Source: Candidatus Bathyarchaeota archaeon
Lineage (GTDB): Archaea > Thermoproteota > Bathyarchaeia > TCS64
Assembly: GCA_043826455.1 (NCBI GenBank)
Contig: JBDRQD010000030.1
Coordinates: forward strand, 38,881 to 102,880
Direction: 5' to 3'
Length of the DNA stretch: 64,000 bases
The notes beneath the pieces were generated by a model, which had not been told where the DNA came from, made no database searches, and saw only the letters and a program-made list of their open reading frames with translations. A program made the translations under genes and the position numbers. This document shows, piece by piece, positions 9,141 through 39,522 of this stretch (position 1 is the first letter of the stretch; each line of letters starts with the position of its first letter).

Positions 9141-9395
9141 CGCTCAGGGTCGGGTAACTTGTTTTATGGTGGAATAAACCGTTATAAAATGATACCCCCT
9201 ACGTTTTTTACACTCTGCTGCCATTGCTCTGTGCCTGATGTGCTGAATGAACCGTGATTTTGTGTGGAATGGGCGGCGTATTTGCATAGAATGGGATTGT
9301 AAAGGCGCGTTTCCTGGTTTCCTTTTTGCTTGGGGCGGCTGTTTCCGGTTCCTTCGCTCTACCCCCTCTCTGCTAATATCGCGGTTGGGGCTAGC
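9141..9395 (-). repeat. Non-coding ~250-bp repeat, copy A (approximate ends)
   Basis: Its reverse complement aligns by eye with 19445-19680 and 37745-38170, e.g. AACCGGAAACRGCYGCCCCA and AAAAAA(C)GTAGGGGG(G)TA. Confidence 0.8.
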
Positions 9396-9490
9396 CAGAT
9401 TTCTGCGACAACTGTAAAGTCTCAACGGACACGCCTTAAAACCATGAGTTATGTGTACCATAAACCTTTTCTTTTACCAATAAACTTGGA

Positions 9491-9724
9491 ATGGGGGTAA
9501 ATATGTCAATAGTTACCATTGATGCTCAGCGTCGCATATACCTCCCCAGGGAGCTGGGCTTCAAAGCAAAGAAGGCAATCATAGTACCTAGAGGAGAAAC
9601 CTACGTAATAATACCTGTCCCCGACGAAATCACCCCCATAGAGGCAGACGCAACAATAGAGGAGCTCAAGCACAGGGCCGAGGCGAAGGCGAGGAAGGAG
9701 GCCGAGGATGCTAATAGAGTCTGA
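9491..9724 (+). CDS. vapB: AbrB/MazE/SpoVT-type antitoxin
   Basis: VTIDAQRRIYLP swapped-hairpin motif; overlaps the downstream PIN gene. Confidence 0.75.
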   Translation: MGVNMSIVTIDAQRRIYLPRELGFKAKKAIIVPRGETYVIIPVPDEITPIEADATIEELKHRAEAKARKEAEDANRV

Positions 9725-10142
9725 TCTGTTTATCGCTTACATGAAGAAGGGCGACTGGCTCAAACCAGTGGCGGAGGAGATATTTGACGCCATATCATCG
9801 AAGCGGCTCAAAGATGTCCAGGCCTCATCGGAGGTCCTCCACGAGCTATACTACGTCTTTGTCGAGCACGCCCCCGTCTCCATCATACTAGGTAACGCAG
9901 CCAGGATGGCTACCATGGAGAACATTAGGTATGTAGACGCGACCCGGGAGATCTACCTATCCGCCCTCGAACTCGTGTCCACATACCAGCTGGCCTCCAT
10001 ATTCGACGCCATCTACGCGGCCACAGCCCTCACAGACACGGTTCCAGATCACACCATGCTGTCCACTGACTCAGCCTACGATAGGGTGCCCGGCTTAGCG
10101 AGGGTCGACCCAAGGAACCTAAAGATACCCTCAATGGCGTAG
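9708..10142 (+). CDS. vapC: PIN-domain VapC toxin
   Basis: LIESD, VLHEL, FDAIYAATA and LSTD acidic PIN motifs. Confidence 0.85.
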   Translation: MLIESDLFIAYMKKGDWLKPVAEEIFDAISSKRLKDVQASSEVLHELYYVFVEHAPVSIILGNAARMATMENIRYVDATREIYLSALELVSTYQLASIFDAIYAATALTDTVPDHTMLSTDSAYDRVPGLARVDPRNLKIPSMA

Positions 10143-10226
10143 ATGTGCAGTTTTTCAAGTAACTGGTGAGATTCAGCAGCTTGTATGCATAGAAAGCATT
10201 TGAGTTACCTGAGTTGAAACGGTTAA

Positions 10227-10454
10227 ATGGGTGCGGTTTTGAGGTTCAGCGTCATCGTCGAGCGGGACCAAGACGGTGTTTATGTCGGCTCCGTCCCTGA
10301 GCTTCCAGGCTGCCATACCCAAGCAAGGACCGTTGGCGAGCGCATGGAGCGCATACGTGAGGCTGTGGAGCTGTACCTGGAGGTCGAAGAAGTAGAGGGA
10401 GGGCGAGAGTTCATAGGCGTCCAGTTTCTAAAAGTCCCCTCACGTGAGCCTTAA
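10227..10454 (+). CDS. hicB: HicB family antitoxin
   Basis: YVGSVPELPGCHTQART...IREAVELYLE. Confidence 0.88.
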   Translation: MGAVLRFSVIVERDQDGVYVGSVPELPGCHTQARTVGERMERIREAVELYLEVEEVEGGREFIGVQFLKVPSREP

Positions 10455-10502
10455 ACCAGTCAAGGCCACATAGTTCATTGCATTTGTTAAATGCGGGGCT
10501 TC
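10444..10502 (+). pseudogene. HicA N-terminal remnant
   Basis: A GTG overlapping the hicB end reads SLKPVKAT*FIAFVK, resembling the start of HicA, then stops. Confidence 0.4.
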
Positions 10503-10637
10503 TGTAGTGAACTTTCTATTTTATTGCTGTGCCTTTGGTTGTGACTATTGCCGGAATGATAGGGCGCACAATGTTGCATCGACACTTTTCTTATGTTCTT
10601 TCAGTCTTTCGTGACGGACTTGAACTTGAGATAGCCT

Positions 10638-11033
10638 TCACTGTGTTGGGTTTAATTGGCCCTCTCCAAGTCTTTCTCTGATGAATGTGAGGATGATCCT
10701 CGCCGCCTGCATCGGGTCATCCGGCAAATAGCTTTCATGTACACTGTTATCTGATCCTTCATGGTAGTGTTTTGGGAAGGTTTTCACGTGGCTCCACTTA
10801 GGGTGTGGGGCATTATCATGCCTGTGTATCTGTCCTGTGATGTGTCTGTGTTCCCAGTGGTAGGAATACTTGCCTGACCCGGATAACCATATGTCCAAGT
10901 AGCTTCCATCGACGATGTAGACCCTGAGCTTTGCAGGCGTACCAGAGGACGTATGATGGATGTGGGTGTCTTCCACAATGTCAGGGTACTCGTTCATGCC
11001 GAGGTTGGATATCTCCCTGTAGAGGTTTTCCAA
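10638..11033 (-). CDS. DUF6516/TumE-like putative toxin
   Basis: YSYHW...RHDNAPH...TFPKHYH motif. Confidence 0.75.
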   Translation of the reverse strand: MENLYREISNLGMNEYPDIVEDTHIHHTSSGTPAKLRVYIVDGSYLDIWLSGSGKYSYHWEHRHITGQIHRHDNAPHPKWSHVKTFPKHYHEGSDNSVHESYLPDDPMQAARIILTFIRERLGEGQLNPTQ

Positions 11034-11045
11034 TCCCTGTTCCGC

Positions 11046-11339
11046 CTACTTGGGCATGGAGTCTAGTTCCCGCCGGATCTTCTCGGCCTGCTCGACGAGG
11101 TTCTCGTACTGGATGAGATCTTCCCACGTGGGGTGCTCCTCCACTGAGCCCTTCTTGATCTTCTCCTCCAGCTCACATGGGCTCCTGACCCTGTACCTGT
11201 TCTCCACGTCTTTGAGTTCGGCCTGGATCATCCTAAGCCTGGCTCTCAGGTACATCTTGACGCCCCCGGCGACGAGTTCCTCTGGGGGTACCCCCAGGGA
11301 CTTGGAGACTCTATCTACAAGTTCGCTGGTCTCGGTCAT
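11046..11339 (-). CDS. Putative cognate antitoxin (TumA-like)
   Basis: Small helical protein with EEHPTWEDLIQYENL, directly upstream of the DUF6516 gene. Confidence 0.65.
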   Translation of the reverse strand: MTETSELVDRVSKSLGVPPEELVAGGVKMYLRARLRMIQAELKDVENRYRVRSPCELEEKIKKGSVEEHPTWEDLIQYENLVEQAEKIRRELDSMPK

Positions 11340-11429
11340 CTACGTCGGTGATCTTTTCTCGGCGTGGCTTAATAACTTCACCGGAGGGCTCGTCGGCGTT
11401 GTTGTTGCGCCCGCGAGCGCGATGTTGTT

Positions 11430-11825
11430 CTAGATGTTGATGTTATCTCTTGCCTCAAGATCTTTCCTGATAATGTCCCTAAGGTAGTCTGATGCCTGGA
11501 AATAGAGTCCAGAGTCTAGCACCTGGTCTAAGACCTCTTTCAGGGGGATAGGTATTCGGGTGGAGACGACGACTGTGTCGAGAAGTAGTTTCTGTTCACT
11601 GGGCTCCTTCTTCTCATCTTTTTTAACGCTTACCTTTATCATCCTCAGCTGGATGCCTTTTTCTTCGAGGTCCTTTCGTATAAGGTAGTTCACGTACTCG
11701 GAGAGGTTGAGGTAGGCGCCGGTTTCGAGGATCCGGAGTAAAGCATCGTAGATGGGGGCCGTCACCCTCACGTTGAACGAGTATGAGCTTTTCGTTAGGC
11801 TCCATATATTTTCATCATCTTTCAA
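11430..11825 (-). CDS. Tandem ribbon-helix-helix DNA-binding protein
   Basis: Two RHH-like repeats: VRVTAPIYDALLRILETGAYLNLSEYVNYLIRKDLE and TRIPIPLKEVLDQVLDSGLYFQASDYLRDIIRKDLE. Confidence 0.7.
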   Translation of the reverse strand: MKDDENIWSLTKSSYSFNVRVTAPIYDALLRILETGAYLNLSEYVNYLIRKDLEEKGIQLRMIKVSVKKDEKKEPSEQKLLLDTVVVSTRIPIPLKEVLDQVLDSGLYFQASDYLRDIIRKDLEARDNINI

Positions 11826-12284: not shown

Positions 12285-12293
12285 AAAAGAAAA

Positions 12294-14780
12294 ATGAATA
12301 GTAAAAAAGCGATTACTCTACTAGTATTAGCAACACTCATAATGTCATTTGTACCTCTGGTACCTGTCAGAGCCATCACTATGAACGCTTACACCGGTAA
12401 GAAAGGTGGCGCTCTCCCCGAGCTTAGGAAGGGAAGCGTCATCGAGGTCACCGGTGGCGGCGTGACTGCTGGTGCAACGATCAACCTCTACTGGGACAAC
12501 GCCTTTAAGGAAACATTCAGTAGCGGCTCCGGTAAACTGAACTCGACAACAGCCAAGAATACAGGCGCCTACACAGTTAGGTTCAAGATACCTGAGGCTG
12601 TTGCAGGAGCCCACTACATCTGGGTGAAAGACACAGCCACCGGCGATACTCTAGGTGGTATCACTGTAGCTCAGTCAGCTCTAACACCTGTGCCTTACCT
12701 GAAGCTATCCCCAACCACAGGACTGGCCGGCGACACCATCACATTAACAGGCTACCACTTCGGCGACGAGGTTGACATCACACCCATCTCAGACAACTTC
12801 GTAGACTCTTACCCCTCCCCACTGGAAGCGACAGAGACTCCAGCAACACCCGAAACAACGGATCTGGGTACATTCACGTGTACCTTCAAAGTACCAGCAA
12901 CTACTGCCTACGGCTCCTACACAATCACGGCCACCGACACTACAAACACTGACACAGTACCCTTCACGGTTGGCGCCGCCATCTCACTCAACATTGAGGA
13001 GGGCCCAGTCGGCAAGGTAGTGCAGGTGTCAGGAAGAGGCTTCACTTCAGGACGTAACATTGAAAAAGCCGGAGTGACGATCAGCGCTACTCAATGCTAT
13101 GTCATCAACGATCCCGTTGTTGTAAAAGCAGACGGAACCTTCAAGGCATCCATAGTGATCCCCCAGGTAGCATCCACAAACGACTACACGATCACTGTTA
13201 CAGAGTCCGGTGCGTCACCGAAATCTGGTACAGCCGACTTTGAGGTAGTTGGATTAGCCGAGATTAAGGCTACTCCCGCCTACGGTCCTCAGGGATCGCA
13301 GATAACGGTTGAGGGCTGGAACTTTACACAGATCTCCAACACCAACGTGGTCGTCACACTCGCCACTGTAGGCTCTAAGACCTTCAAGACTGACTCCAAG
13401 GGCTACTTCAAGGGCATATACACTGTTCCCGCTGTAGCGGCTGGTGTTCAGACACTCATGGCAGAGCAGGCTTCCTACAACATTGACGCAGACGCGAACT
13501 TCAGGGCTGGCTTGATGATAGTTATCCTATCACCCAACTCAGGCCCGGCAGGCACCAAAGTCACTCTAACAGGCACAGGCTTCACTACAGGCGGCACGAC
13601 GCAGTGGAACGCAACCTTCGGCAACAATGATTGGGTAGATGAGACAATCCTGAACACAGATGGCACCCTATCCAAGGAGGTCTACGTCCCGACAATCACG
13701 CCAGGGGCATACACGGTCACCGTACTGGACATTGATGCCGAGATCGAGGTCACAGCAAGCTTCACCGTCACAAAGACGACGAACGTCACCCCTGACCCCC
13801 TCGTAGCTCCAAACGGCTACAAGGTAAAGTTCAAGGGCACGTTCTTCGCCGCAGACGATGACGACACAGAGGATGTGACACTTGACTGGGTGCTTTGGAA
13901 CGCCACAAGCAACTGGGACATGGACGTGTACAACAACACCTTGCTGACCATCGACTCCTTAGTCTGGGACACGGGTAACTTCACAGCCTACTGGGAAGTG
14001 CCCGATGACGACACCCTCGACCTAGGCGTCTACTGGGTCAACGTGACCGACAGCGAGGACCTGTTCTACCAGTTCCAGTTCGAGGTCGTGTCAAAGACCA
14101 CAGCCATCACGCCGAGGAAGGCCACCTTCAGGATCAGTGAGACAGTCGCCTTCAACGTACAGAGCAGCTTCTCCCAGGTGAACTCATACATCAAGGTATG
14201 GGACCCTGCAAGCAACCTGTACTGGAAGACAGACCTGTTCGTCACCGGTAACTGGATCAAGGTAGGCACCCTACAGGTGTATCCCTTCTACGAGCAGACC
14301 GCCGGCGGAAACCCGATGGTCCTCCTGGAGGACGCACCCCTGGGCACCTACACCTGGAAGTGGTACGACGAAGATGACGAGGTAGTCAGCTCAGGCACCC
14401 TCATGGTCGCAGCCGCGACCGAGTCGGTGCTTGGCGCACAGATCGAGGACCTGAACAAGGCAGTCACTGACCTGCAGACCGACATATCCACGGTCAGCAC
14501 AGAGATGGCCGGAGTCAGGACCCAGATCACCAACGCCATCAACGCAGCCAACGCAGCAGTCCAGGCAGCCAACGCGGCCACACAGGCCGTCAACGCAGTC
14601 GCCCAGACCGCCAGCGCAGCGTCCACAGCAGCCACCAACGCAGCTAACGCTGCCACGGAGGCCAAGAACGCCGCCAACGGCCTGACGACACTGGTCTACG
14701 GCGCCATCGGCGCATCACTAGTAGCAGCACTCGCAGCAATCGTAAGCCTAATGCAGATAAGCAGAAGGATCGCGGGCTAA
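12294..14780 (+). CDS. S-layer / major surface glycoprotein with repeated Ig-like (IPT/TIG-like) domains, coiled coil and C-terminal TM anchor
   Basis: Signal peptide; repeated P-x-x-G-P-x-G-x-x-V-T-x-x-G-x-G-F units; many N-x-S/T sequons; Ala/Asn-rich coiled coil; hydrophobic tail ending SRRIAG. Confidence 0.8.
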   Translation: MNSKKAITLLVLATLIMSFVPLVPVRAITMNAYTGKKGGALPELRKGSVIEVTGGGVTAGATINLYWDNAFKETFSSGSGKLNSTTAKNTGAYTVRFKIPEAVAGAHYIWVKDTATGDTLGGITVAQSALTPVPYLKLSPTTGLAGDTITLTGYHFGDEVDITPISDNFVDSYPSPLEATETPATPETTDLGTFTCTFKVPATTAYGSYTITATDTTNTDTVPFTVGAAISLNIEEGPVGKVVQVSGRGFTSGRNIEKAGVTISATQCYVINDPVVVKADGTFKASIVIPQVASTNDYTITVTESGASPKSGTADFEVVGLAEIKATPAYGPQGSQITVEGWNFTQISNTNVVVTLATVGSKTFKTDSKGYFKGIYTVPAVAAGVQTLMAEQASYNIDADANFRAGLMIVILSPNSGPAGTKVTLTGTGFTTGGTTQWNATFGNNDWVDETILNTDGTLSKEVYVPTITPGAYTVTVLDIDAEIEVTASFTVTKTTNVTPDPLVAPNGYKVKFKGTFFAADDDDTEDVTLDWVLWNATSNWDMDVYNNTLLTIDSLVWDTGNFTAYWEVPDDDTLDLGVYWVNVTDSEDLFYQFQFEVVSKTTAITPRKATFRISETVAFNVQSSFSQVNSYIKVWDPASNLYWKTDLFVTGNWIKVGTLQVYPFYEQTAGGNPMVLLEDAPLGTYTWKWYDEDDEVVSSGTLMVAAATESVLGAQIEDLNKAVTDLQTDISTVSTEMAGVRTQITNAINAANAAVQAANAATQAVNAVAQTASAASTAATNAANAATEAKNAANGLTTLVYGAIGASLVAALAAIVSLMQISRRIAG

Positions 14781-14800
14781 ACCCGCAACCCCCTTTTCTT
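14668..14800 (+). repeat. S-layer 3' end and terminator, copy 1 of a direct repeat
   Basis: Matches 15446-15578 at an offset of 778 bp. Confidence 0.95.
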
Positions 14801-14811
14801 TAATTTCTTTT
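14781..14811 (+). terminator. Oligo-T archaeal terminator after the S-layer gene
   Basis: CCCCCTTTTCTTTAATTTCTTTT just after the stop codon. Confidence 0.55.
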
Positions 14812-14901
14812 AATCCCCGAAACCAGTGGACACTAGGATCGGTCAATTCCCTCAATTACCCAAACATTGTAGAGAACAAACAAAAGTCTACTCTAAGATG
14901 T

Positions 14902-15159
14902 CTACCTGTAAACTGTTCTCCTGTGCTGTACATCCAGGAGCGTCACAGAGAGTCCCACATCATCAACAATGTAAATAACGCGATAATCACCCACCCTGAG
15001 GCTCCACCTGCCAGACAGAGGCCCCTTCAGGGGCTTACCTAAGTGTGGATCTTCTTCAAGATTAGTAACCGCCTCATCGATCCTTACACGCTGAATCTTG
15101 TTCAATAATCTAAGGTTCTTCTCGAAGGTCCGGGTAACCTTGAGGCTATACCTCGTCAC
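14902..15159 (-). CDS. relE: RelE/ParE family toxin
   Basis: GKPLKGPLSGRWSLRVGDYRVIY...HRRTVYR. Confidence 0.9.
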   Translation of the reverse strand: MTRYSLKVTRTFEKNLRLLNKIQRVRIDEAVTNLEEDPHLGKPLKGPLSGRWSLRVGDYRVIYIVDDVGLSVTLLDVQHRRTVYR

Positions 15160-15373
15160 CCCGTCTCAACTCCTCTATGAGGTCCCTGTAATCCCGTACC
15201 CTCCCCGCCTTAACATCCTCCTCTGCCTCACGGAGGCTCGCCAAAGCCTCCTCATCCTCCAGGATCTCCAGGGTTTCTGTGATACCCTCAAGAAGCCCTC
15301 CGACGCGTAAGAGAAGTGCCCTATCCTCATCCGTGAGTAGAAGATCGCCTTCAGCCATGTACGCACCAACCAT
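15146..15373 (-). CDS. RelB/Phd-like antitoxin
   Basis: ETLEILEDEEALASLREAEEDVKAGRV; overlaps relE. Confidence 0.75.
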   Translation of the reverse strand: MVGAYMAEGDLLLTDEDRALLLRVGGLLEGITETLEILEDEEALASLREAEEDVKAGRVRDYRDLIEELRRGDEV

Positions 15374-15445: not shown

Positions 15446-15578
15446 ACGCAGCCAACGGCCTGACCACACTGATCTACGGCGCCATCGGCGCATCGCTAGT
15501 AGCCGCACTCGCAGCAATCGTAAGCCTGATGCAGATAAGCAGAAGGATCGCGGGCTAAACCCGCAACCCCCATTTTCT
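15446..15578 (+). repeat. Orphan copy of the S-layer gene 3' end (anchor, stop and terminator)
   Basis: Encodes AANGLTTLIYGAIGASLVAALAAIVSLMQISRRIAG*; 6 substitutions relative to copy 1 in the coding part. Confidence 0.95.
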
Positions 15579-15899
15579 TATTTTTTATTATTCTAAGGAG
15601 TCCAAAGTAGTGATATCTAGGCTTAGCTCCACGCCCAGAAGAAGCTTAATCTTCCCCGTCTCTGCGAAGCGTACATTGAGCTACTAGACAGTATTGGCGA
15701 TGGGGATTCAGGATCATTCAATAATAACTTTCGTAGAAGATTTTTCTCGGCCCTATTTACGGCAGCTCTTAACCACACAGACACTGATGCTGCAACCAGC
15801 AATGTGGCGTGTCGTTTAGACCCTGAAGAGGATGCAGCTCACATACTTTCAGCGAATACTAAAAAAAGGCGACTCAAAGTATATGATGTTGAATACTGG

Positions 15900-16076: not shown

Positions 16077-16090
16077 TATTGGTACCAATA
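16077..16090. repeat. Palindrome TATTGGTACCAATA, copy 1
   Basis: Exact 14-mer; shares 20 bp (TAGTTTATTGGTACCAATAG) with copy 4. Confidence 0.95.
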
Positions 16091-17042: not shown

Positions 17043-17303
17043 ATGAGCGTCAGCATCAAGGATCTCGACGAGAACGCCTACAGGAACCTCAAAGCCGAAG
17101 CCATCCGCCACGGCATGAGGGTAAGCGAGGCCGCAACCGAAGCCTTCAGACTCTGGGTCGCCTCCAAGAGACAGACGCGCCAAAGAGACCAGGAACGCAT
17201 GCGGAACGCGGCAGAAGACATGGACACGCTGAGAAGCCAAGGCAAGGTTATATGGTCCGGGGCTGAGGAGATAAGGAGATGGCGGGACGAACGGAAGCGG
17301 TAG
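17043..17303 (+). CDS. vapB: VapB-type antitoxin (RHH-like)
   Basis: SIKDLDENAYRNLKAEA...SGAEEIRRWRD; overlaps the PIN gene. Confidence 0.75.
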   Translation: MSVSIKDLDENAYRNLKAEAIRHGMRVSEAATEAFRLWVASKRQTRQRDQERMRNAAEDMDTLRSQGKVIWSGAEEIRRWRDERKR

Positions 17304-17695
17304 TCGACGCCTCCACAGCCATTAAATGGCTATCCGAGGAAGAGGGAACCCCCGCCGCCCTCAAACTGAGAGAAGAACACATAGAGGGAACCACAGTCCT
17401 GTCCGCCCCCGATCTACTCCTCTACGAGCTGGCCAACGCCCTCCGATACAGACCAGACTATGACGACGAGAAAGTGACGCAAGCCCTAATCAACGTCATC
17501 GACCTCCAGATCGACCTGATAACCCCCGGAAGGGAACTCCTCCAACAATCCACCAAAGACGCATACATCTACGATACGACAGTCTACGACTCATGTTACC
17601 TCGCCCTCGGTGAACTCATGGGGGTCGAAGTTTACACGTCTGACAGAAAGTTTTACGAGAAGGCGAAGGGATCAGACATTCTAAGGCTCATTTAA
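17279..17695 (+). CDS. vapC: PIN-domain VapC toxin
   Basis: VVDASTAIKW, YELANAL, VYDSCYLAL and TSD motifs. Confidence 0.9.
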   Translation: MAGRTEAVVDASTAIKWLSEEEGTPAALKLREEHIEGTTVLSAPDLLLYELANALRYRPDYDDEKVTQALINVIDLQIDLITPGRELLQQSTKDAYIYDTTVYDSCYLALGELMGVEVYTSDRKFYEKAKGSDILRLI

Positions 17696-17771
17696 CTCCA
17701 AAGCTGCGCGCGCCATGTGTGTGCATCGATTACAGCCCTGCGCACTTTGAAAGGTGATGCGTACACGCCTC

Positions 17772-18203
17772 CTACCCTAACACTTTAAGAAACTCATCGG
17801 GAGTGAGCGAGGCGATGAAGGCGGAGGCTTTAGTGAACTGCTTGTCCTCAGTGATGACATGGCTGGCCCCTGAGATCACGCCGGAAGCAGCGATGATGGC
17901 GTCAGGGAGCCTCATCCCGGTTTTCGCCCTTATCTTGCCGGCGAGCTCCGCCAACCCGGTATCGACGTCCACGATCGCGTACTCGCCTGTGGAGCGGAAG
18001 TGCAGGACGAAGTCCTTGAGCCCGGTCTCATCACCCGATGTGTGGTAGCCGACAGCGACCTCGGCGATGGTCACAGTTGAGATCGCGGCCCTGGCTTTCC
18101 CCGACTCAACCTGGTCAAGGATCTCAACCACGCCTTCATACCCAGGCTCCCGGTTGTACACCTTGAGTAGGACGTTCGTGTCGAGAACTACTCTCGGTCC
18201 CAC
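17772..18203 (-). CDS. vapC: PIN-domain VapC toxin
   Basis: VVLDTNV, TIAEV, LPDAIIAAS and ITED motifs. Confidence 0.9.
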   Translation of the reverse strand: MGPRVVLDTNVLLKVYNREPGYEGVVEILDQVESGKARAAISTVTIAEVAVGYHTSGDETGLKDFVLHFRSTGEYAIVDVDTGLAELAGKIRAKTGMRLPDAIIAASGVISGASHVITEDKQFTKASAFIASLTPDEFLKVLG

Positions 18204-18433
18204 TCCCTACGTAGCCTCCTCTGGAATGCTAGACTCGGCTCGCCGAGGGGCTTCGCCCTCATTAATATGTCGCTGAGCTTATCCTTTGGAACTTTCCTCA
18301 GCGTCACCGTGTCTCCGTCAGCCTGGAATATTACTTTGTCCCCTTCAGATACACCTAGAGCCACCCGGATGTCCTTCGGTATCGTGACTTGACCCTTGGA
18401 TGTGACTGAGCTTACTCCTACCTCCAACACCAT
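18188..18433 (-). CDS. vapB: AbrB/MazE/SpoVT antitoxin
   Basis: VTSKGQVTIPKDIRVALGVSEGD. Confidence 0.88.
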   Translation of the reverse strand: MVLEVGVSSVTSKGQVTIPKDIRVALGVSEGDKVIFQADGDTVTLRKVPKDKLSDILMRAKPLGEPSLAFQRRLRREWDRE

Positions 18434-18558
18434 CCCCCGAATAGACGGTCTACATACTTACTTATATGCATTACATTTCTTACTCGAAAATAAGAAAAAC
18501 TGTGTCTTTGCATGAAGATGACCCAGCAAATCTGTGTTACAGGGTCATGAGCGTAGGC

Positions 18559-18666
18559 GTGAACTACCCACCTTGCGCCTATATGAAGGCGTATATATCC
18601 CTTACGATGCGGGTTCAATTCATCCCATGACTGAAGTCATGGACTTTCTTGAACCCGCATCGTAAG
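18559..18666 (+). mobile_element. Hairpin element resembling IS200/IS605-family ends (non-autonomous remnant)
   Basis: GTGAACTACCC at 18559; perfect 18-bp inverted repeat 18601-18618/18649-18666 enclosing TTCATC-CCATGAC-TGAA-GTCATGG-ACTTTC. Confidence 0.45.
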
Positions 18667-18710
18667 AGAAAGCTTTATACCATTACACCATAGAAACAAT
18701 AATTGGTAAA

Positions 18711-18977
18711 ATGGCAGAAATAGTCGAAGTTGATAAATCAGGCCGAATAGTGCTCCCGAAGAGGCTCCGCGACGAGCTAGGCATCCGCGAGAGAACACGG
18801 CTGATACTCATGAAGAGAAACGGCAAAATAACAATGATGCCCCTCGATGTAGACGAGATAGCCCGAAGGCTAGAGAAAGAGCTAGAGGGGATGGAAGTTG
18901 AGGAGATCGCCGCATCCATCAGGAGGGAGATCAACGCCAAGATCGCGAAGGAGCACCCGGAGCTTTCTGCTGGATAA
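18711..18977 (+). CDS. vapB: AbrB/MazE/SpoVT antitoxin
   Basis: VEVDKSGRIVLPKRLRDELGI. Confidence 0.88.
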   Translation: MAEIVEVDKSGRIVLPKRLRDELGIRERTRLILMKRNGKITMMPLDVDEIARRLEKELEGMEVEEIAASIRREINAKIAKEHPELSAG

Positions 18978-19380
18978 CAACGTCTTCGTGGCAGCCATAG
19001 CCAAACCAAGCCGGACCACTGGAACACTTAGACTGATCCTCCACCTCATCGCAGACGACGACATACAGCTTATAGGCGACAGGTACCTCGCCGAGGAGAT
19101 GATCCGCTACGCAGAGGTCTACCCCTCAGAGACGGCGGCGTCGCTCCTGGAGGCCCTCGCCTCAAAATTAAAGCTCGTCGATGTAGAGGAAAAGTACCTA
19201 AAGATATGCAAGGAATACATTGGGACAAATGATCTATCTGACGTGTACCACGCAGCTGCCTGCCTTCAGACCGGATCGGCCCTGATAAGCGATGATGGAC
19301 ACTTCAACCGGATACGGGACGAGGGTATAATTAATGTCTGGAGCACCCATCAGGTAATAAAGGAGCTTCTGGGCGTCTAG
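18898..19380 (+). CDS. vapC: PIN-domain toxin (true start uncertain, probably further downstream)
   Basis: FLLDNNVFVAA, LAEE, DVYHAAAC and LISDDGHF motifs. Confidence 0.8.
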   Translation: MRRSPHPSGGRSTPRSRRSTRSFLLDNNVFVAAIAKPSRTTGTLRLILHLIADDDIQLIGDRYLAEEMIRYAEVYPSETAASLLEALASKLKLVDVEEKYLKICKEYIGTNDLSDVYHAAACLQTGSALISDDGHFNRIRDEGIINVWSTHQVIKELLGV

Positions 19381-33021: not shown

Positions 33022-33035
33022 TATTGGTACCAATA
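33022..33035. repeat. Palindrome TATTGGTACCAATA, copy 5
   Basis: GTATTGGTACCAATACACGT, 20 bp identical to copy 6. Confidence 0.95.
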
Positions 33036-33067: not shown

Positions 33068-33298
33068 ATGGTTCGCAGGCACAGGATCAGCGAGGAGGAG
33101 GTTAGGCCTGTGATGAGGGCTGTGCATCGGTGCCTCGCCGAGATGGTTGGGGCTGAGCTGCTCTCCGAGGACGCGTACCACCTGTACACGTTACTGTGGA
33201 GGTTTAAGGAGCACAGGTCGGGGCCGCCCCACTACCCCGACGCGACCCGCGAGGCCATATTAAGTCTCCTTGATGAAACCTCTGCGATGCTCTGGTGA
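33068..33298 (+). CDS. Hypothetical protein
   Basis: 76-aa ORF with ATG and coding-like composition; no recognised motif. Confidence 0.5.
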   Translation: MVRRHRISEEEVRPVMRAVHRCLAEMVGAELLSEDAYHLYTLLWRFKEHRSGPPHYPDATREAILSLLDETSAMLW

Positions 33299-34858: not shown

Positions 34859-34901
34859 CTTGCGTACAATTCTAATAATATCAAGGCGCAGGAGTAAGGT
34901 G

Positions 34902-35834
34902 ATGACTGAGATACTTGTGACCGGCGGAGCAGGCTTCATAGGCACTAATCTGGTCAACGAGCTGAGGCGCCGCGGCCACCGGGTTCACGCCGCAGACCTC
35001 ATCAACACAGACCGAGAAGGCTACACCCGGGTCGATGTCCGCAGCTACAGACAACTCGAAAAGCTGCTCGACGCCCACAAGTTCGATGTCGTATACCACC
35101 TGGCGGCGGAGTACGGCCGCTGGAACGGTGAGGACTACTACGAGAACCTCTGGCAGACAAACTGCGTAGGCACCAAGCACATTATACGGTTACAGGAAAA
35201 ACTTGGCTTCAGGATGATCTTCTTCAGCAGCGCCGAGGTATACGGCGACTACACGGGCACCATGACCGAGGACGTCATGATCAACAACCCCGTCAAAGAC
35301 ACCCTCCAGATGAACGACTACGCCATCACCAAGTGGGCCGGCGAACTCATGTGCATCAACGCAGCCAAGATGACCGGCGCAGAGATAGTCCGCACCCGGC
35401 CAGTGAACTGCTACGGCCCCCACGAGCACTACACGCCCTACCGCGGCTTCATACCCAAGTTCATCTACCACGCACTACACAGGAAACCCTACACCGTCTA
35501 CACAGGCCACAAACGCATCATCGACTACGTCGAAGACTCGTGCCGCACATGGGCCAACATAGTAGACAACTTCAAGCCGGGCGAAGTCTACAATGTGGGC
35601 GGCTGCCCCGAGTGGATGCACACCATCAAGGAGTACAGCGACATGGTCCTCGAGGCCGTGGGCCTCGACGACCGCCTGGTCACCTACAAGCCCACGGAGC
35701 CCCACACAACCCAGATCAAGACCATCGACTGCACCAAGGCTGTACGCGACCTCAAGCACGACCCCAAGGTGCCCCCCGAGGAGGGCATCAGGCGAACAGT
35801 TGAATGGATGAAGTGGTACTATAGGATGGATTAG
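34902..35834 (+). CDS. NAD-dependent sugar epimerase/dehydratase
   Basis: VTGGAGFIG, HLAA, YAITK (YxxxK) and NCYGP motifs. Confidence 0.9.
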   Translation: MTEILVTGGAGFIGTNLVNELRRRGHRVHAADLINTDREGYTRVDVRSYRQLEKLLDAHKFDVVYHLAAEYGRWNGEDYYENLWQTNCVGTKHIIRLQEKLGFRMIFFSSAEVYGDYTGTMTEDVMINNPVKDTLQMNDYAITKWAGELMCINAAKMTGAEIVRTRPVNCYGPHEHYTPYRGFIPKFIYHALHRKPYTVYTGHKRIIDYVEDSCRTWANIVDNFKPGEVYNVGGCPEWMHTIKEYSDMVLEAVGLDDRLVTYKPTEPHTTQIKTIDCTKAVRDLKHDPKVPPEEGIRRTVEWMKWYYRMD

Positions 35835-35835
35835 G

Positions 35836-36831
35836 ATGAGCGTATACGACTGCGTGAAAGATAAGACGGTTCTGGTCACCGGCGGAGCCGGAGCCATCGG
35901 AGGCAACCTGGTCAGGAAGCTGGTCGAGCTCCAAGCCAAGGAGGTAGTGATCCTCGACAACCTCAGCAGCAGCTACGCCTGGAACATCCCCCCAGCCCCC
36001 GGCGTCAGGTTCATCCAGGGCGACATCCTGGACGACGAGAAACTCAAGTGGGCCTTCAAGCACAAGCCCGAAATCGTCTACCACCTTGCCGCCCACTTCG
36101 CAAACCAGAACAGCGTCGACAACCCTGAGACAGACCTCATGGTGAACGGCATGGGCATCCTTAAAGTGCTTCAATACAGCCAACTCACCGGCGTAGACCG
36201 CTTCATCTACGCGTCCAGCGGCTGCGGCATATACGGAGAGGACAGCCCCATGCCCTTCAAAGAGGAGTCCGTCTCCATGAAGCTCTACACCCCCTACCAG
36301 GTCACCAAGATGCTGGGCGAACTCTACACCAACTACTACCACAACCTCTACGACATGCCCACCGTCAACGCCCGGTTCTTCAACAGCTACGGCCCCGGCG
36401 AGGTCCCCGGCAGGTACAGGAACGTCATCCCCAACTTCATATACTGGGCCATCAACGGCCAGCCCCTACCAATAACAGGCACCGGCGACGAGACCAGGGA
36501 CTTCACCTATGTAGGCGACATCGTCGACGCCCTGATCCGCATGGCGTACTTCGATGAAGCAATAGGGGAAGCCTTCAACATAGGAACCTCCAGAGAGATA
36601 ATGATCAAGGACCTAGCACAGTGGATCAATGAATTAACTGAAAACTCGGCCGGAATCGTTTACAAGCCTCGCCGCAACTGGGATAAGAAAAACCGGCTTC
36701 TAAGTAGCATAGAGAAAGCCCGAAGAGTCCTCAGATACGATCCAAAGACCGACTTCAAGGAGGGCCTCGGCCACACCTACAACTGGTTCACAGAGAACCT
36801 GGACAACATCAAACACTCAGCAGAGTTCTAA
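35836..36831 (+). CDS. NAD-dependent sugar epimerase/dehydratase
   Basis: VTGGAGAIG, YQVTK, RFFNSYGP and TRDFTYV motifs. Confidence 0.9.
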   Translation: MSVYDCVKDKTVLVTGGAGAIGGNLVRKLVELQAKEVVILDNLSSSYAWNIPPAPGVRFIQGDILDDEKLKWAFKHKPEIVYHLAAHFANQNSVDNPETDLMVNGMGILKVLQYSQLTGVDRFIYASSGCGIYGEDSPMPFKEESVSMKLYTPYQVTKMLGELYTNYYHNLYDMPTVNARFFNSYGPGEVPGRYRNVIPNFIYWAINGQPLPITGTGDETRDFTYVGDIVDALIRMAYFDEAIGEAFNIGTSREIMIKDLAQWINELTENSAGIVYKPRRNWDKKNRLLSSIEKARRVLRYDPKTDFKEGLGHTYNWFTENLDNIKHSAEF

Positions 36832-36902: not shown

Positions 36903-37151
36903 GTGTACAGAACCGTTTACATGGCCACCATGACACAGGTCCAAGTCAAAATACCGGAGAACCTCGTCAAAAAGATTGACGAATGGATCATAGACGGCAG
37001 GTTCACCAGCAGAAGCGAGGCCATCAGAACCATCCTCACCCTCTACGAGGAACGGGAACGCACCCGAGAGTTCTACACGATGCTCCACGGCAGAGCCTCC
37101 GAGGCCCAGGAGCACCCCGAGCTGCTCATACCCTTAGAGGAAGCCCCTTGA
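36903..37151 (+). CDS. RHH antitoxin
   Basis: VQVKIPENLVKKIDEWI..GRFTSRSEAIR. Confidence 0.78.
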   Translation: MYRTVYMATMTQVQVKIPENLVKKIDEWIIDGRFTSRSEAIRTILTLYEERERTREFYTMLHGRASEAQEHPELLIPLEEAP

Positions 37152-37411
37152 GGATCCTCCTCCACCCCAAGGCTGCCGAGTACCTCATGAAAAGTAGCGA
37201 CGATCCTCGGTCAAGAATAAAGCAGCGCCTACACGAGTTGGACGACCAGCCCGAGAAGAAGGGAAAACGACTGAAACACTCGCCCTATTATAGCCTTCGG
37301 ATAGGAGACTACAGAGCCATCTACATGGTAGACCCGGTTAAAGCCCAAGTCGTCATCCTGTACATCGGCCACAGAAAGGACGTCTACGACGCCTTCGATA
37401 AAATATTCTAA
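37148..37411 (+). CDS. relE: RelE/ParE family toxin
   Basis: TTG overlapping the antitoxin stop; YSLRIGDYRAIY...IGHRKDVY. Confidence 0.85.
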   Translation: MRILLHPKAAEYLMKSSDDPRSRIKQRLHELDDQPEKKGKRLKHSPYYSLRIGDYRAIYMVDPVKAQVVILYIGHRKDVYDAFDKIF

Positions 37412-37448
37412 CTAAACAAACACGGCATATAGTAGCCGTACAATAATA

Positions 37449-37667
37449 ATGAAAGCCAAGAAAATAGGTCTCACTGCTCCAATCCCGTCGCTTCTCCAGG
37501 GGCTTCTCCATGGCGTACCCAGCTCTCGCCGGGCTGCCGTAAACCAAAGTATCGATGGGCACATCTGGCCAGAGACCTATACGGTTACCGTGTTCTGCAG
37601 GATTGATGTCGTAGATTACCATGCAGTAATGAACGACGAGCACAGCGACTACAAGTGGGTAAACTAA
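37449..37667 (+). pseudogene. Possible NUDIX hydrolase C-terminal fragment
   Basis: Ends MNDEHSDYKWV, typical of a NUDIX C-terminus; no NUDIX box. Confidence 0.35.
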
Positions 37668-37744
37668 GCACCAGAAGACGCTCGCCCTCCTACTGCAAAT
37701 GATCTAGGAATCAAAGATCTTCCTACAATAATGACAACCATGCA

Positions 37745-38170
37745 TCAACCGCTAAGAAAGGGTAGAGAGGTGTCCTAAGCAAAAAATCCGTAAAATATGG
37801 GTCTTAATTTATCCATTCAGCGGAGACGAAGCCGCCCCAAGGAATAGTAATAGATTACATGAAAAGCACTCACAATGGTTGAAGAACCCTTGCTTGCAAC
37901 TCCCATTATTAGCACCAATCCCTTCACTATCCTGCCACATACAGAAAAGCACCGAAAAGCATCAACCCTGAAAAAGATGAATTTTTTTCCGCCTTATCCC
38001 GGCGGGGGCGGGATAAGAGGCACGGACACACTGGGTAATGAGTCCACTGTGAAAAAACGTAGGGGGGTACTATATTATGACGAATTTTTCTACCATAAAA
38101 CGGGTCACTCGCCACCCGCGAGGCCAAAAAAACCCGGGGAACACACGTGAAAAAGGTAGGGGGGTACCAA
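37745..38170 (+). repeat. Non-coding repeat, copy C (with insertions and a second G-string motif)
   Basis: GCCGCCCCAAG at ~37831, CCTTCACTATCC..CATACAGAAA at 37921, TGTGAAAAAACGTAGGGGGGTAC at 38048, GTGAAAAAGGTAGGGGGGTACC at ~38147. Confidence 0.7.
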
Positions 38171-38418
38171 TTTTAGGAAGAGAAAACCTCCTAAAATAGG
38201 GGTCAGAGCCCCATACATGAGGCAAAAGAAGCCCATGACCACGACACTCACACCAAAGAAGATAACTAAAATCCTCTGAATTAGGTTGCCTCGTTCCTAT
38301 GTTGTTCAAGGAGGGCATCGGTCACACCTATAACTGGTTTATGTGAACTGGGAAAACATCAAACAGTCAGCCGAGTTCTAACTCAACAATAAAATAACTG
38401 TACATCAATCTTAGACTG

Positions 38419-39498
38419 ATGGCTCTCGGCATCATCCTCGGCACCCGCCCCGAGATAATAAAGATGGGCCCCATAATACGCCTATGCGAGAAGAGGTCCG
38501 TCCCCTACTACCTGCTCCACACTGGCCAGCACTACAGCTACGAGATGGATCAGGCCTTCTTCAGGGACCTGGAGCTACCCGAGCCCAGGATCAACCTGAA
38601 CGTGGGCTCAGGCACCCACGCGGAGCAGACGGCCAGCATCATGGTCGGCGTAGAGAAGACCCTGCAGAAGGAGGACACAGGCGTAGCCCTCGTCCAGGGG
38701 GACACCAACACCGTCCTGGCCGGCGCCTTGGCCGCCGCCAAGCTCCAGGTTCCAGTGGGCCATGTGGAGGCCGGGCTGCACAGCTACGACAGGGGGATGC
38801 CGGAGGAGATCAACCGGGTGGTAGCCGACCACCTGTCCGACTTCCTCTTCGCGCCCACAGAGGAATCCAAGAGAAACCTCCTCAAGGAGGGCATACCCGA
38901 TGAAAGGATCCATGTCACAGGCAACACAGTGGTGGACGCCGTCCACCAGAACCTGGAGCTGGCCAAGGAGAAGTCAACGATCCTGAAGAAGCTGTCCCTG
39001 GAGCCCGGCCAGTACATGGTGGTCACAGCCCACCGCGCCGAGAACGTCGACCGCAGAGACCGGCTCACAGGGATAATAGAGGGCCTTGGCCTAGTCGCGG
39101 AGCACCTGGACCAGCCCATCATCTACCCCGTCCACCCCCGGACACAGAAGATGATCAAGGAGTTCAGGCTGACGACCCGGAACCTCAAGATCGTTCAGCC
39201 CCTAGGCTACCTGGACTTCCTGGCCCTGGAGGCATCATCTAGCCTGGTCCTCACCGACTCCGGCGGCGTCCAGGAGGAGGCCTGCATACTGGGCGTCCCC
39301 TGCGTCACGCTGCGGGAGAACACGGAGCGCCCCGAGACCCTTCAGGTGGGCTCGAATGTCTTGGTCGGGGCAGAGCCGGAGAGGATACTCCAAGGAGCCT
39401 TGGAGATGAGCCGGAGGAAGAGGGGTTGGCCTAATCCCTTCGGGGACGGAAACGCGGCGGAGAAGATTATTAAAATTATCGAGGAATCCCGAAATTAA
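38419..39498 (+). CDS. wecB: UDP-N-acetylglucosamine 2-epimerase (non-hydrolysing)
   Basis: GTRPEIIKM, HTGQHY, QGDTNT, PEEINR, TDSGGVQEEA and NPFGDG motifs. Confidence 0.95.
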   Translation: MALGIILGTRPEIIKMGPIIRLCEKRSVPYYLLHTGQHYSYEMDQAFFRDLELPEPRINLNVGSGTHAEQTASIMVGVEKTLQKEDTGVALVQGDTNTVLAGALAAAKLQVPVGHVEAGLHSYDRGMPEEINRVVADHLSDFLFAPTEESKRNLLKEGIPDERIHVTGNTVVDAVHQNLELAKEKSTILKKLSLEPGQYMVVTAHRAENVDRRDRLTGIIEGLGLVAEHLDQPIIYPVHPRTQKMIKEFRLTTRNLKIVQPLGYLDFLALEASSSLVLTDSGGVQEEACILGVPCVTLRENTERPETLQVGSNVLVGAEPERILQGALEMSRRKRGWPNPFGDGNAAEKIIKIIEESRN

Positions 39499-39522
39499 CG
39501 TGTATTGGTACCAATACACGTT
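39497..39522. repeat. Palindrome copy 6, perfect 26-bp AACGTGTATTGGTACCAATACACGTT
   Basis: Overlaps the wecB stop codon; core at 39503-39516. Confidence 0.95.

Follow-up and report, generated by a model that had tools for sequence, protein, structure and literature searches.

A variable cell-surface and toxin-antitoxin gene region of a Bathyarchaeota archaeon, and a palindrome that is most likely the operator of a small protein

The stretch of DNA analysed here (the window, 64,000 nucleotides of a Candidatus Bathyarchaeota archaeon) contains between positions 9141 and 39522 an island of cell-surface and glycan genes. These specify an S-layer-like surface protein with a TIG domain and a membrane anchor at its C-terminus (12294..14780, + strand), an intact polysaccharide flippase (19734..21377, +), two NAD-dependent epimerase/dehydratases (34860..36831, +) and UDP-N-acetylglucosamine 2-epimerase (wecB; 38419..39498, +), all recognized by Pfam and all named in an earlier reading of the letters by themselves (the sequence-only reading). 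A 202-amino acid protein (29274..29882, - strand) is without a sequence-family match; its predicted fold is PD-(D/E)XK nuclease-like, the closest structures being of the XisH family. The G+C content is 0.46–0.57 across the interval versus 0.58–0.63 in the flanks, and the interval forms the left portion of a larger region of cell-surface and glycan genes that is low in G+C and changing fast, and in which toxin-antitoxin (TA) cassettes have accumulated. As had been stated, it encodes no integrase or transposase: such domains are absent from the 45 island ORFs scanned, and whole-genome searches with PF00589, PF01797, PF07282 and PF00239 gave no match on this contig. The junctions are spanned by contigs that were assembled separately in a public run, probably from the same sample.

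The TA pairs, previously put at about nine, number about ten, with one solo HicB in addition. They comprise a cluster with a PIN pair, HicB, a TumE pair and a ParD-like ORF (9491..11825); a ParE toxin (14902-15159) with a small upstream partner (15146-15373), together occupying 14902..15373 on the - strand; three PIN pairs (17043..19380); a nucleotidyltransferase/HEPN pair (21829..22846, +) between the flippase and a flippase fragment; a DUF3368/UPF0175-RHH pair (26138..26963, -); and a ParD-like (RHH) and ParE pair (36903..37411, +), the ParE of which is 45% identical to that at 14902. The cassettes are 85–94% identical to copies elsewhere in the genome or in other species (94% for 16979-17713 and its copy on contig C38), whereas the flanking housekeeping genes reach only about 70–75%.

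Displaced gene 3' ends beside TA cassettes, a feature already remarked upon, are real in three cases (S-layer, flippase and epimerase), and in each a cassette lies between the displaced end and its intact gene. The S-layer 3' end at 14668-14815 recurs at 15446-15593 with 91% identity, and weaker similarity runs on to about 14845 and 15630, respectively. The first copy of this direct repeat (14668..14845, +) includes a T-rich tail; the second, displaced copy (15446..15630, +) has the same downstream flank as in the relative G013, and a 40-amino acid ORF there (15436-15558) is equal to the membrane anchor. The ParE toxin and its partner at 14902..15373 lie between the two. The flippase fragment (22951..23517, +) comes from another flippase allele, of which it is the C-terminal third, matching residues 361–547 of the intact protein with 33% identity (E 5e-30). 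The 3' end of the second epimerase gene (36754..36831, +) is repeated with 85% identity at 38305..38381 (+), 38 nt before wecB; this displaced end was missing from the earlier list.

From these duplications and their layout we infer that the displaced ends are scars, left when homologous ends of genes recombined. DNA with one gene end and a TA cassette on it would have been inserted, or would have partly replaced the resident gene, with the old end staying behind; to judge from the layout, either a single crossover or a partial replacement could have made the scars. The cassettes would then persist because they are addictive. The distant congener G020 has the same duplication of the S-layer end, around an insert ending in a ParD-like gene, and in G004 ParDE is found directly 3' of the S-layer gene. 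Since the layout of S-layer gene, ParDE and duplicated end is present in G020 as well, it is old or recurrent and gives no evidence of ongoing module addition.

Several other gene pieces reported from the interval did not survive analysis. The supposed 3' half of an Lrp gene (28889-29116) aligns with positions 2–71 of AsnC_trans_reg, a model of 73 positions. Paralogs of equal length occur on three other contigs, and many relatives contain matches; it is therefore a whole stand-alone gene. The putative NUDIX end (27054-27404) is a membrane and zinc-ribbon protein. As to half of a PIN gene, the four PIN ORFs each span 102–118 positions of a 120-position model, and an all-against-all search in six frames revealed no partial PIN copy; the start of a HicA gene was looked for and not found.

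Comparison with relatives showed that the gene order of the island is not kept. The interval is thus a variable region of surface and glycan genes, as the earlier reading had it, and is compositionally distinct. In G013 and G008 the island genes are spread over separate contigs, and they are absent upstream of the CoA-transferase gene in four of five relatives. Since the relatives compared are different species with fragmented assemblies, "variable" here refers to a species-level comparison.

Flexible genomic islands in which the genes for exposed cell structures get replaced have been described (Lopez-Perez et al. 2014, PMC4033161), as has the cell-wall island of Haloquadratum walsbyi (Martin-Cuadrado et al. 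2015, PMC4535781). As characterized in those papers, such islands resemble the present one in having compositionally distinct S-layer, surface glycoprotein and glycan-synthesis genes, a content that differs among relatives, and no integrase of their own; exchange is thought to proceed via homologous recombination, sometimes with mobile elements, and phage pressure is the proposed driver (PMC4033161, PMC4535781). They were defined by comparison, at one fixed site, of strains belonging to a single species, whereas our comparison is among different species and fragmented assemblies; the density of TA cassettes and the three cassette-flanked displaced ends are particular to this island relative to the descriptions of islands in these sources. 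Virus evasion, suggested before for this locus, may be a reasonable function for surface and glycan islands generally.

Chromosomal integrons are likewise variable cassette arrays, with many TA cassettes, a palindromic element at the cassette ends and stabilization through addiction. The island resembles them as a variable array with many TA cassettes and a palindromic element (see below), but it is without an integron integrase, its palindromes are perfect and of 14 nt whereas attC sites are long and imperfect, and the segments between its sites measure 2–7 kb and hold several genes on both strands. In elements mobilized by tyrosine integrases a duplicated gene 3' end (the att sites) flanks the insert and the gene itself is left whole. 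The S-layer and epimerase 3'-end repeats also flank an insert beside an intact gene. Unlike att-flanked elements, however, these inserts are of 0.6 and 1.5 kb and carry nothing but a ParDE pair (with some repeat debris), an integrase being absent; the flanking repeats, of about 180 and 78 nt, are long and no more than 85–91% alike, and the S-layer arrangement is common to the distant congener G020 too.

The sequence-only reading had taken two non-coding signals, a long repeat and a palindrome, to be dedicated recombination sites confined to the interval. The long repeat is not so confined: nhmmer gave 85 matches on 29 of the 81 contigs, and 24 of the matches are close to full length (the family unit is about 300 nt). 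The local copies are at 9144..9370 (-), just upstream of the flippase (19422..19717, +; full length, at a position also occupied in G008), and upstream of wecB (38030..38278, +; two partial copies). It is a genome-wide dispersed family, marking nothing specific to the locus.

The palindrome, TATTGGTACCAATA, is indeed restricted to the interval: its six exact copies fall within 23.4 kb (0.17 expected; a count of six was reached in 0 of 100 shuffles), and there are no others among the 81 contigs of the 2.95-Mb genome. Copy 1 (16077..16090) is in non-coding DNA that separates the displaced S-layer end from a TA pair; copy 2 (21389..21402) is 12 nt past the flippase stop, with a small zinc-ribbon ORF following after about 130 nt; copy 3 (23610..23623) is 93 nt past the stop of the flippase fragment, the only displaced end of the three with a palindrome at its edge; and copy 4 (25720..25733) is intergenic. 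Copy 5 (33022..33035) is 46 nt upstream of a small gene, p76, and abuts the TATA-like TATATTTT about 25 nt from its start codon. Copy 6 (39503..39516), 5 nt past the wecB stop, extends to a 24-nt perfect palindrome, and the boundary with sequence common to G008 lies about 64 nt beyond it. The site before the HEAT-repeat gene has a degenerate counterpart at the same place in G008. Five of the six sites are not obviously in promoters, three being just past gene ends (flippase twice, wecB), and no consensus among the six was found outside the 14 bases.

The p76 gene (33068..33298, +) specifies a 76-amino acid protein, our candidate for the palindrome binder. Its N-terminus is basic (RRHRI), three helices are predicted, and a G-P-P-x-Y-P loop is conserved. 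It matched no Pfam family and neither Arc nor RHH; its predicted three-helix fold (pLDDT 87) found no match among known DNA-binding folds. The 14-mer is present in 12 of 24 sampled relatives of the genus and in none of 16 genomes outside it. In six relatives arrays of 3–8 copies, spaced at 38–66 nt, are located directly upstream of p76 homologs, and at most loci the last site is 7–46 nt from the p76 start codon. The DNA upstream of 19 readable p76-homolog loci contained TTGGTACCAA (9 loci), mainly ATGGTACCAT (6), a mixture (1), TTTGTACAAA (1) or none of these (2). The half-site variant tracks the p76 subfamily: the loop is G-P-P in seven readable TTGGTACCAA loci and G-R/H/A-P in five readable ATGGTACCAT-dominated loci, and G015, G016 and G017 each possess two paralogs with different site types. 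In the set of 25 genomes screened for the two kinds of motif, a p76 homolog occurs in 13 of the 15 that bear a motif versus one of the 10 that do not; in a metagenome scan for paired sites it stood beside the array in 7 of 30 loci. Sites are also found at a metabolic gene, that for methylene-H4MPT dehydrogenase (MTD): G013 and G019 have two upstream of it, in the gap to a divergent neighbour, and the ortholog in the present genome has four of the ATGGTACCAT type.

The association of sites with the gene, their promoter positions and their co-variation with the p76 family constitute the behaviour of a protein and its operator. On these sequence comparisons the palindrome is most likely the operator of p76, which represents a family of small proteins not described before. 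The protein would bind as a symmetric dimer and may repress or tune its own promoter and neighbouring island genes. A parallel is Stf76 of pSSVx, an ORF80 relative and one of those small proteins of archaeal mobile elements that bind DNA and regulate their own genes (PMC4027180). As presented in that source, Stf76 is like p76 in its size of about 76 residues, in having no close sequence relatives, in the repeated specific sites in its own promoter and in the presence of family members on mobile elements; it is a winged helix-turn-helix protein, whereas the p76 model has three helices and no wing, and the p76 sites differ in being perfect palindromes of 14 nt, which form arrays with as many as 8 members and also occur away from the gene. 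Certain bacterial integrative elements, in records including gut metagenome contigs, carry three TATTGGTACCAATA copies about 40 nt apart just upstream of a 68–78-amino acid ORF, with integrase and excisionase genes alongside. These share a small gene and a palindrome array with the p76 locus, but the ORF scores as an Arc-like or NikA-like domain, a different protein family, and the likeness is one of DNA word and layout, not of descent.

It is unlikely, in our view, that a different regulator, for example a small winged-helix protein, binds the palindromes and that the p76 genes are simply heavily regulated targets. None of the 18 ATGGTACCAT-type sites in this genome has a p76 paralog beside it, so another protein may bind at least that class; in two records (G008 and one metagenome contig) mixed alternating arrays are divergent from a gene for a MarR-like winged-helix protein of roughly 90 amino acids; one metagenome contig has an array at the G013-like position with the p76 gene missing; and the p76 model is without a recognisable DNA-binding fold. 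Against this, site type follows p76 subfamily even among paralogs in one genome, p76 and the motifs co-occur across genomes, and a last site so close to the p76 start is what autoregulated genes usually have. Rather improbable, too, is that the palindromes are centromere-like or domain-boundary sites, with p76 a segregation or chromatin adaptor and not a gene regulator. Up to eight evenly spaced sites before a tiny gene are indeed reminiscent of the sites that plasmid adaptor proteins use in partition, p76 paralogs occur on contigs of this genome that look like mobile elements, and the three island sites past gene ends are not in promoters; but no partition ATPase gene adjoins any of the arrays read, and metabolic-gene promoters also hold sites.

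That the palindromes are crossover or accessory sites for a recombinase encoded elsewhere, p76 being an architectural or directionality factor of the excisionase kind, we regard as doubtful, less so than the centromere-like role and more so than a different regulator. The genome does contain six tyrosine integrase genes, all of them outside the island. Paralogs of p76 adjoin two of the six (on C67 and, weakly, on C11), a third follows a primase-polymerase gene, and on C11 an orphan S-layer 3' end is about 500 nt from the integrase/p76-like pair. Also in favour are the confinement of all six copies to the island, the palindrome 3' of both the intact flippase and its displaced fragment, the XisH-like nuclease fold encoded in the island, and copies 5 and 6, which have about 30 nt in common (inverted, 90% complementary) and enclose 6.5 kb that G008 does not have upstream of its CoA-transferase gene. 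Yet the arrays of relatives lie between housekeeping genes, the single case that was read completely has no recombinase within 12 kb, and the MTD promoter holds sites; the palindrome is absent from the junctions of two of the three displaced ends, the six sites have nothing in common beyond 14 nt, and the site before the HEAT-repeat gene is in an ancestral position common to G008. Public-run contigs over 9001-29000, which cannot reveal rare forms, have no joint at a palindrome.

Taken together, we consider it about 60% probable that this is a variable surface and TA region without dedicated recombination sites, in which the palindrome is the p76 operator, the repeat is a genome-wide family and the displaced ends are scars. 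The pairing of p76 with its palindrome is undescribed, and is worth testing.

The interval between about 9 and 39.5 kb of the window is a flexible surface/glycan region of known kind, carrying many toxin-antitoxin (TA) cassettes and genuine recombination scars. Its G+C content is 0.46-0.57, compared with 0.58-0.63 in both flanks and 0.578 genome-wide. The window itself covers bases 38881-102880 of C30, one of the 81 contigs of a 2.95-Mb genome. In a Pfam scan of the 45 ORFs within the interval, 12294-14780 proved to encode a surface (S-layer-like) protein of 828 amino acids that has a TIG domain and, at its C-terminus, a membrane anchor. The scan further identified genes for a polysaccharide flippase at 19734-21377 and two epimerase/dehydratases at 34860-36831, wecB at 38419-39498, a GAF/winged-helix regulator, a response regulator with PAS and GAF domains, and a HEAT-repeat protein. 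The gene content bears out the sequence-only reading of a cell-surface gene island, and the drop in G+C sets the interval apart in composition. It encodes exposed structures and glycan synthesis in DNA unlike the core genome in composition, and belongs with the flexible islands described in PMC4033161 and PMC4535781. The glycan theme extends beyond the interval originally delimited, to a GT4 glycosyltransferase gene at 7421-8497 and, across a 10-kb metabolic block, to a second low-G+C block (50888-63440) encoding a beta-helix surface protein, a GT2, two GT4 proteins and a methyltransferase. A 998-amino acid ORF in the latter has no Pfam match and sits in the lowest-G+C stretch of the window (0.43).

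According to Pfam the island contains some ten TA pairs (four PIN, two ParE, TumE, nucleotidyltransferase/HEPN and DUF3368/UPF0175), plus a solo HicB. The partners of the four PIN toxins are AbrB/MazE or RHH proteins, giving the adjacent small toxin- and antitoxin-domain genes of type II systems. The cassettes are 85-94% identical to copies elsewhere in the genome or in other species, as against 70-75% for the flanking housekeeping genes, a difference that would fit cassette mobility. Two of them (16979-17713 and 17756-18561) are 94% identical to a copy on another contig of the genome (C38) and 85-89% identical to those of more distant congeners; since this exceeds the identity of the housekeeping genes, recent transfer is suggested. 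Between two PIN modules lies a near-perfect hairpin (18598-18669; 35-nt arms, 83% complementary, 2-nt loop), and at 25020-25303, within a low-complexity ORF, a degenerate GGTTTCC-TCAGG-like sequence is tandemly repeated every 11 nt (33 nt). An Rfam scan of 8000-41000 (E 0.1) gave no match, and the window carries no tRNA genes. Scans of the unnamed island ORFs for defence systems and phage families returned the HEAT-repeat match only.

Three genes of the island possess displaced 3' ends. The last 113 bases of the S-layer gene recur 778 nt downstream together with 35 bases of its T-rich tail (65 at weaker similarity), the identity being 91% over 148 nt (82.5% over 183 nt), so that direct repeats at 14668-14845 and 15446-15630 enclose a ParE pair. 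The downstream copy is followed by the flank found after the single copy of relative G013 and is, on that ground, the original end. The displaced end has its own ATG (15436-15558, + strand) and would encode a 40-amino acid peptide consisting of the membrane anchor only. The anchor-plus-tail block also terminates two other surface-protein loci of the genome, on contigs C48 and C11. In G020, a distant congener whose S-layer ortholog has ~42% protein identity, the 3' end is likewise duplicated (175 nt, 85%) and the insert finishes with a ParD-like gene; in a further relative, G004, the S-layer gene is succeeded by a ParDE pair whose ParE is 76% identical, and its end is not duplicated. Since the copies cluster by lineage, the arrangement is either ancestral, with homogenisation within lineages and loss from G013 and G008 when the repeats recombined with each other, or of more than one origin; neither history points to recent module addition.

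In the flippase region the order is intact gene, palindrome, zinc-ribbon ORF, nucleotidyltransferase/HEPN pair, flippase fragment and again palindrome. The fragment derives from a different allele, of which it represents the C-terminal third; it is 33% identical to the intact flippase and aligns colinearly up to the final residue (E 5e-30). This looks like an older flippase gene that was partly replaced. At the third locus the sequence immediately in front of wecB duplicates, with 85% identity, the final 78 nt of the second epimerase gene, and the direct repeats at 36754-36831 and 38305-38381 are separated by a ParD/ParE pair and dispersed-repeat debris. The two ParE proteins of the island are 45% identical. 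The A+C content of the + strand is mildly high from 35000 to 39000 (0.55-0.66 per 200 nt; window mean 0.52), a stretch that takes in the epimerase genes as well as the ParDE insert and the repeat debris.

At each of the three loci a TA cassette lies between the working and the displaced end. Incoming DNA (which may have been circular) that carried a homologous gene end and underwent a single crossover with the chromosome would leave such a displaced end, and partial gene replacement could produce the same layout; we infer that one or other mechanism lies behind these structures. When the S-layer and epimerase loci were examined for att-type scars, the inserts proved to be flanked by direct repeats of the target, and no integrase was present in or beside them, their content being ParDE genes and repeat debris. 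Of the displaced ends which had been taken as traces of repeated module addition, those of the S-layer and flippase genes are real, and the epimerase gene supplies a third.

Comparison with relatives was at the level of other species only. In the closest, G013 and G008, the flanking proteins are 67-90% identical and the flanks and the island genes lie on separate short contigs. At a threshold of at least 35% identity and E ≤1e-8, four of the five relatives have no island genes upstream of the CoA-transferase gene, and G008 has the GAF regulator only. In G008 the second epimerase is 1.3 kb from the ortholog of a GT4 gene which in the window is 20 kb away, and sequence common to the two genomes begins on the right-hand side of palindrome 6, ~64 nt away from it. 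Where G008 has, between its GAF regulator and HEAT-repeat genes, a KaiC-type ATPase-like gene (recognised by eye) and then a degenerate palindrome, the window has a response regulator, a palindrome and a 76-amino acid ORF, p76 (33068-33298, + strand). The palindrome position before the HEAT-repeat gene is therefore ancestral, and the surrounding genes have changed. In G013 and G008 the island genes are scattered among contigs, as seen at species level in fragmented assemblies.

We also compared contigs from four public sequencing runs with 9001-29000. One run holds 96% of the sampled words and is probably the source sample, and thus not independent. Its contigs run uninterrupted and with no differences across 14764-15558, 15542-17016, 19667-25150 and 25246-29000, covering the S-layer/ParDE and flippase/fragment junctions and palindromes 1-4. 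No joints at palindromes were present in the public-run contigs over 9001-29000, although contigs cannot show rare forms; the joints that were seen (9685 to 19556, with a 20-nt side, and 14638 to 14732) fit the dispersed repeat and the C11 paralog. The other three runs contributed short parts only, mainly TA cassettes, the S-layer end and the repeat.

None of the 45 island ORFs has an integrase or transposase domain in Pfam, as the sequence-only reading had maintained. Genome-wide there are six tyrosine integrase (PF00589) matches, four TnpB-type matches, and a single Y1 transposase gene, which adjoins a TnpB-type gene on C11; all of the integrase and TnpB-type matches are on contigs other than that of the window, and no serine recombinase was found in a search of the whole genome. 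On C11 (8690-10677) an integrase and a weakly p76-like ORF stand in a row with the orphan 3' end of an S-layer gene, which lacks 87 nt internally, and with part of a transposase; an element may have integrated there beside a surface-protein gene. One island product, a 202-amino acid protein (29274-29882, - strand), has five relatives in a library of 5.8 billion proteins, an 'ADV ... VECETRP' motif and C-terminal cysteine pairs. Its model (pLDDT 79, from only six sequences) has as best Foldseek matches 2inb (E 3.8e-4) and 2okf (E 6.6e-4), which we take to be structures of the XisH excision-control family, with TM 0.34-0.53 and rmsd near 6.8 Å; other nuclease-fold chains rank next. The predicted fold is accordingly nearest to XisH-family and other nuclease-fold chains, and no XisH family model in Pfam or NCBIfam matched the sequence.

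Two non-coding signals had been proposed as marks of the island. The long repeat, present at 9144-9370, 19422-19717 and 38030-38278, does not serve as one: the three copies belong to a ~300-nt family with 85 nhmmer matches on 29 of the 81 contigs, 24 of them near full length. The family has copies in relatives as well, the one preceding the flippase being at the same place in G008, and it has no Rfam match. The long repeat is not specific to the island.

The palindrome fares differently. The 14-mer TATTGGTACCAATA occurs in six exact copies, at 16077, 21389, 23610, 25720, 33022 and 39503, and these are the only exact copies in the genome, so the original observation is real and stronger than when it was made. 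With up to two mismatches the window contains seven matches versus 0.17 in shuffled sequences, none of 100 shuffles reaching seven; the seventh (6479, one mismatch) is within a coding region. The second surface/glycan block (50888-63440) has no copy. The sites are 2.1-7.3 kb apart with several genes on both strands in between, and what is common to all six is the 14 bases and nothing more, while some pairs share a few extra bases. Copies 5 and 6 share an inverted match of ~30 nt, and in copy 6 the perfect palindrome extends to 24 nt. Copy 5 is 46 nt 5' of p76 and is directly followed by TATATTTT, ~25 nt from the start codon, the distance at which archaeal promoters would place the TATA box of a leaderless gene.

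Several familiar repeat classes were considered and set aside. Integron cassettes are single genes, each ended by an imperfect attC palindrome of tens of bases; the sites here are perfect 14-nt palindromes bounding multigene segments, and the contig has no integron-type integrase, the six PF00589 matches being elsewhere. A REP/RAYT system does not agree with six copies in one place and a single Y1 gene off on C11 beside a TnpB-type gene, nor a MITE with the lack of any shared flank past 14 bases. Import from a relative with sites of this type (core TTGGTACCAA) finds no support either: in G013, the closest such relative, the sites are not beside homologs of island genes. A literature search with the palindrome core gave cloning primers only and was too narrow to show absence; we know of no description of the palindrome in print.

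Across relatives the palindrome is associated with p76. A sample of 40 related genomes comprised 24 of the same genus, 12 of which carry the 14-mer, and 16 from outside the genus, none of which does. Its typical form in relatives is a tandem array of 3-8 copies spaced 38-66 nt, which in six of them ends 7-90 nt 5' of a p76 homolog. Such homologs occur in 16 of 32 genomes of the genus, and p76 matches no more than 36 representative clusters from a library of 1.84 billion proteins, three of these being repetitive false friends. Several metagenomic homologs have over-long predicted N-termini that are in fact translated palindrome, and arrays therefore accompany the family outside the genus too. 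In the 25 genomes checked for both site types, with cores TTGGTACCAA and ATGGTACCAT, a homolog is present in 13 of 15 with a motif and 1 of 10 without; as relatives are not independent these counts are descriptive. The regions upstream of 19 homologs (one further locus is cut by a contig end) carry sites of type TTGGTACCAA in nine, one of which was found in only one of two upstream readings, mainly ATGGTACCAT in six, a mixture in one, TTTGTACAAA in one and none in two. Which variant of the site is present follows a single residue in a loop of the protein, the motif being G-P-P at all seven readable TTGGTACCAA loci and G-R/H/A-P at all five readable ATGGTACCAT-dominated loci. Three genomes have two paralogs with different site types; such contrasts within a genome are difficult to account for unless the paralogs recognise separate sets of sites. 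With repeated sites in its own promoter that co-vary with the protein, p76 has the attributes of a putative autoregulated operator-protein pair.

A scan of metagenome contigs for paired sites yielded 30 loci, seven with a p76 homolog within 250 nt of the array. About half belong to bacterial integrative elements, a grouping made by eye on site spacing and gene neighbours. Here three identical 14-mers precede a 68-78-amino acid ORF, Arc-like in one of two records tested and NikA-like in both; integrase and excisionase genes adjoin it in L084, the sole record tested for these. In L080, L082, L084, L091 and similar loci the three 14-mers, ~40 nt apart, lie between an integrase/excisionase pair and the small ORF. 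These elements are an independent example of the small-gene-plus-array layout, with the same DNA word in an unrelated lineage. At two other loci, L086 (1510-1700) and L020 (412-607), two palindrome classes alternate 20-30 nt apart in arrays divergent from a ~90-amino acid MarR-like winged-helix gene, which suggests two binders together or a different binder.

No family in Pfam, NCBIfam, PADLOC or PHROG matches p76 at E ≤0.01; there was no usable match in the protein atlas and no relative on viral contigs. The AlphaFold2 monomer model (34 sequences, pLDDT 87) has three helices after an extended basic N-terminus with a nearly invariant R-R-H-R-I. Foldseek gave no solved structure at E ≤0.001, and the best Z of a full structural scan with VIA-align (6.5) is within the chance range for helical bundles. 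The other two family members in this genome are on mobile-element-like contigs, one between a replication-like gene and a tyrosine integrase (C67) and one after a primase-polymerase-like gene recognised by eye (C10); the weak third match, on C11, follows an integrase. In size and layout the family resembles small regulators of archaeal plasmids and viruses such as Stf76 (PMC4027180), but p76 has no detectable membership in the families of such regulators (RHH, Arc, winged helix, Sulfolobus plasmid regulator).

Sites also occur away from p76 genes. G013 and a further relative, G019, have two TTGGTACCAA-type sites upstream of a methylene-H4MPT dehydrogenase gene (Pfam match to MTD with E 1e-98), between this gene and its divergent neighbour, and the ortholog in the genome studied here has four of ATGGTACCAT type. 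This second class, (T/A)AATGGTACCATT(A/T), numbers 18 clustered copies in our genome (C6 46800-46957 and 60159-60302; C15 84610-84849; C48 84081-84407; C81 12759-12830), other clusters lying before an amidohydrolase-like gene, in a transporter/CoA-transferase-paralog gap and inside a membrane-protein gene, whose G008 ortholog has the TTGGTACCAA type at the same place. None of the 18 is beside any of the three p76-family genes of this genome. Judged by these positions, the sites away from p76 appear to behave as operators and not as recombination sites, the 18 copies that lack a p76 neighbour being one gap in this account.

The two marks of the island are a genome-wide repeat and, most likely, the operator of a new small protein family. 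We think it unlikely that palindromes bound by p76 assist recombination in addition; what speaks for it is the flippase case, the inverted palindromes on either side of 33-39.5 kb, and the fact that p76 paralogs have integrases as neighbours. A wider combination is likewise improbable, that p76 represents a new archaeal class of sequence-specific DNA-binding protein with a simple rule and that the palindromes are architectural exchange sites besides. The residue in the G-x-P-x-Y-P loop would then pick T or A at the fifth base from the palindrome centre; the palindromes, at the ends of glycan blocks and read by kin of integrase-adjacent proteins, would be architectural sites, at which distant integrases or the XisH-like nuclease of the island would exchange blocks of surface genes. 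If true, this would rescue the core of the idea that the island is shuffled at dedicated sites. Overall that idea is partly supported, and its observations partly confirmed: a variable surface island with scars stands, and site-marked shuffling is not supported.

The island fits the known picture of variable surface/glycan regions for which virus pressure is the supposed shaping force. Here it comes from an uncultured archaeal group that has received little study, and its richness in TA cassettes is unusual. A motif confined to one locus of one genome need not mark recombination, and it took comparison with relatives to tell in this case. Of more use is a side result, namely a small protein family without known relatives together with its arrays of perfect 14-base palindromes. 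If binding is confirmed, these would constitute a compact recognition pair of protein and DNA, open to testing, from archaea that resist cultivation, and part of the regulatory wiring of uncultured archaea would be readable from sequence alone.
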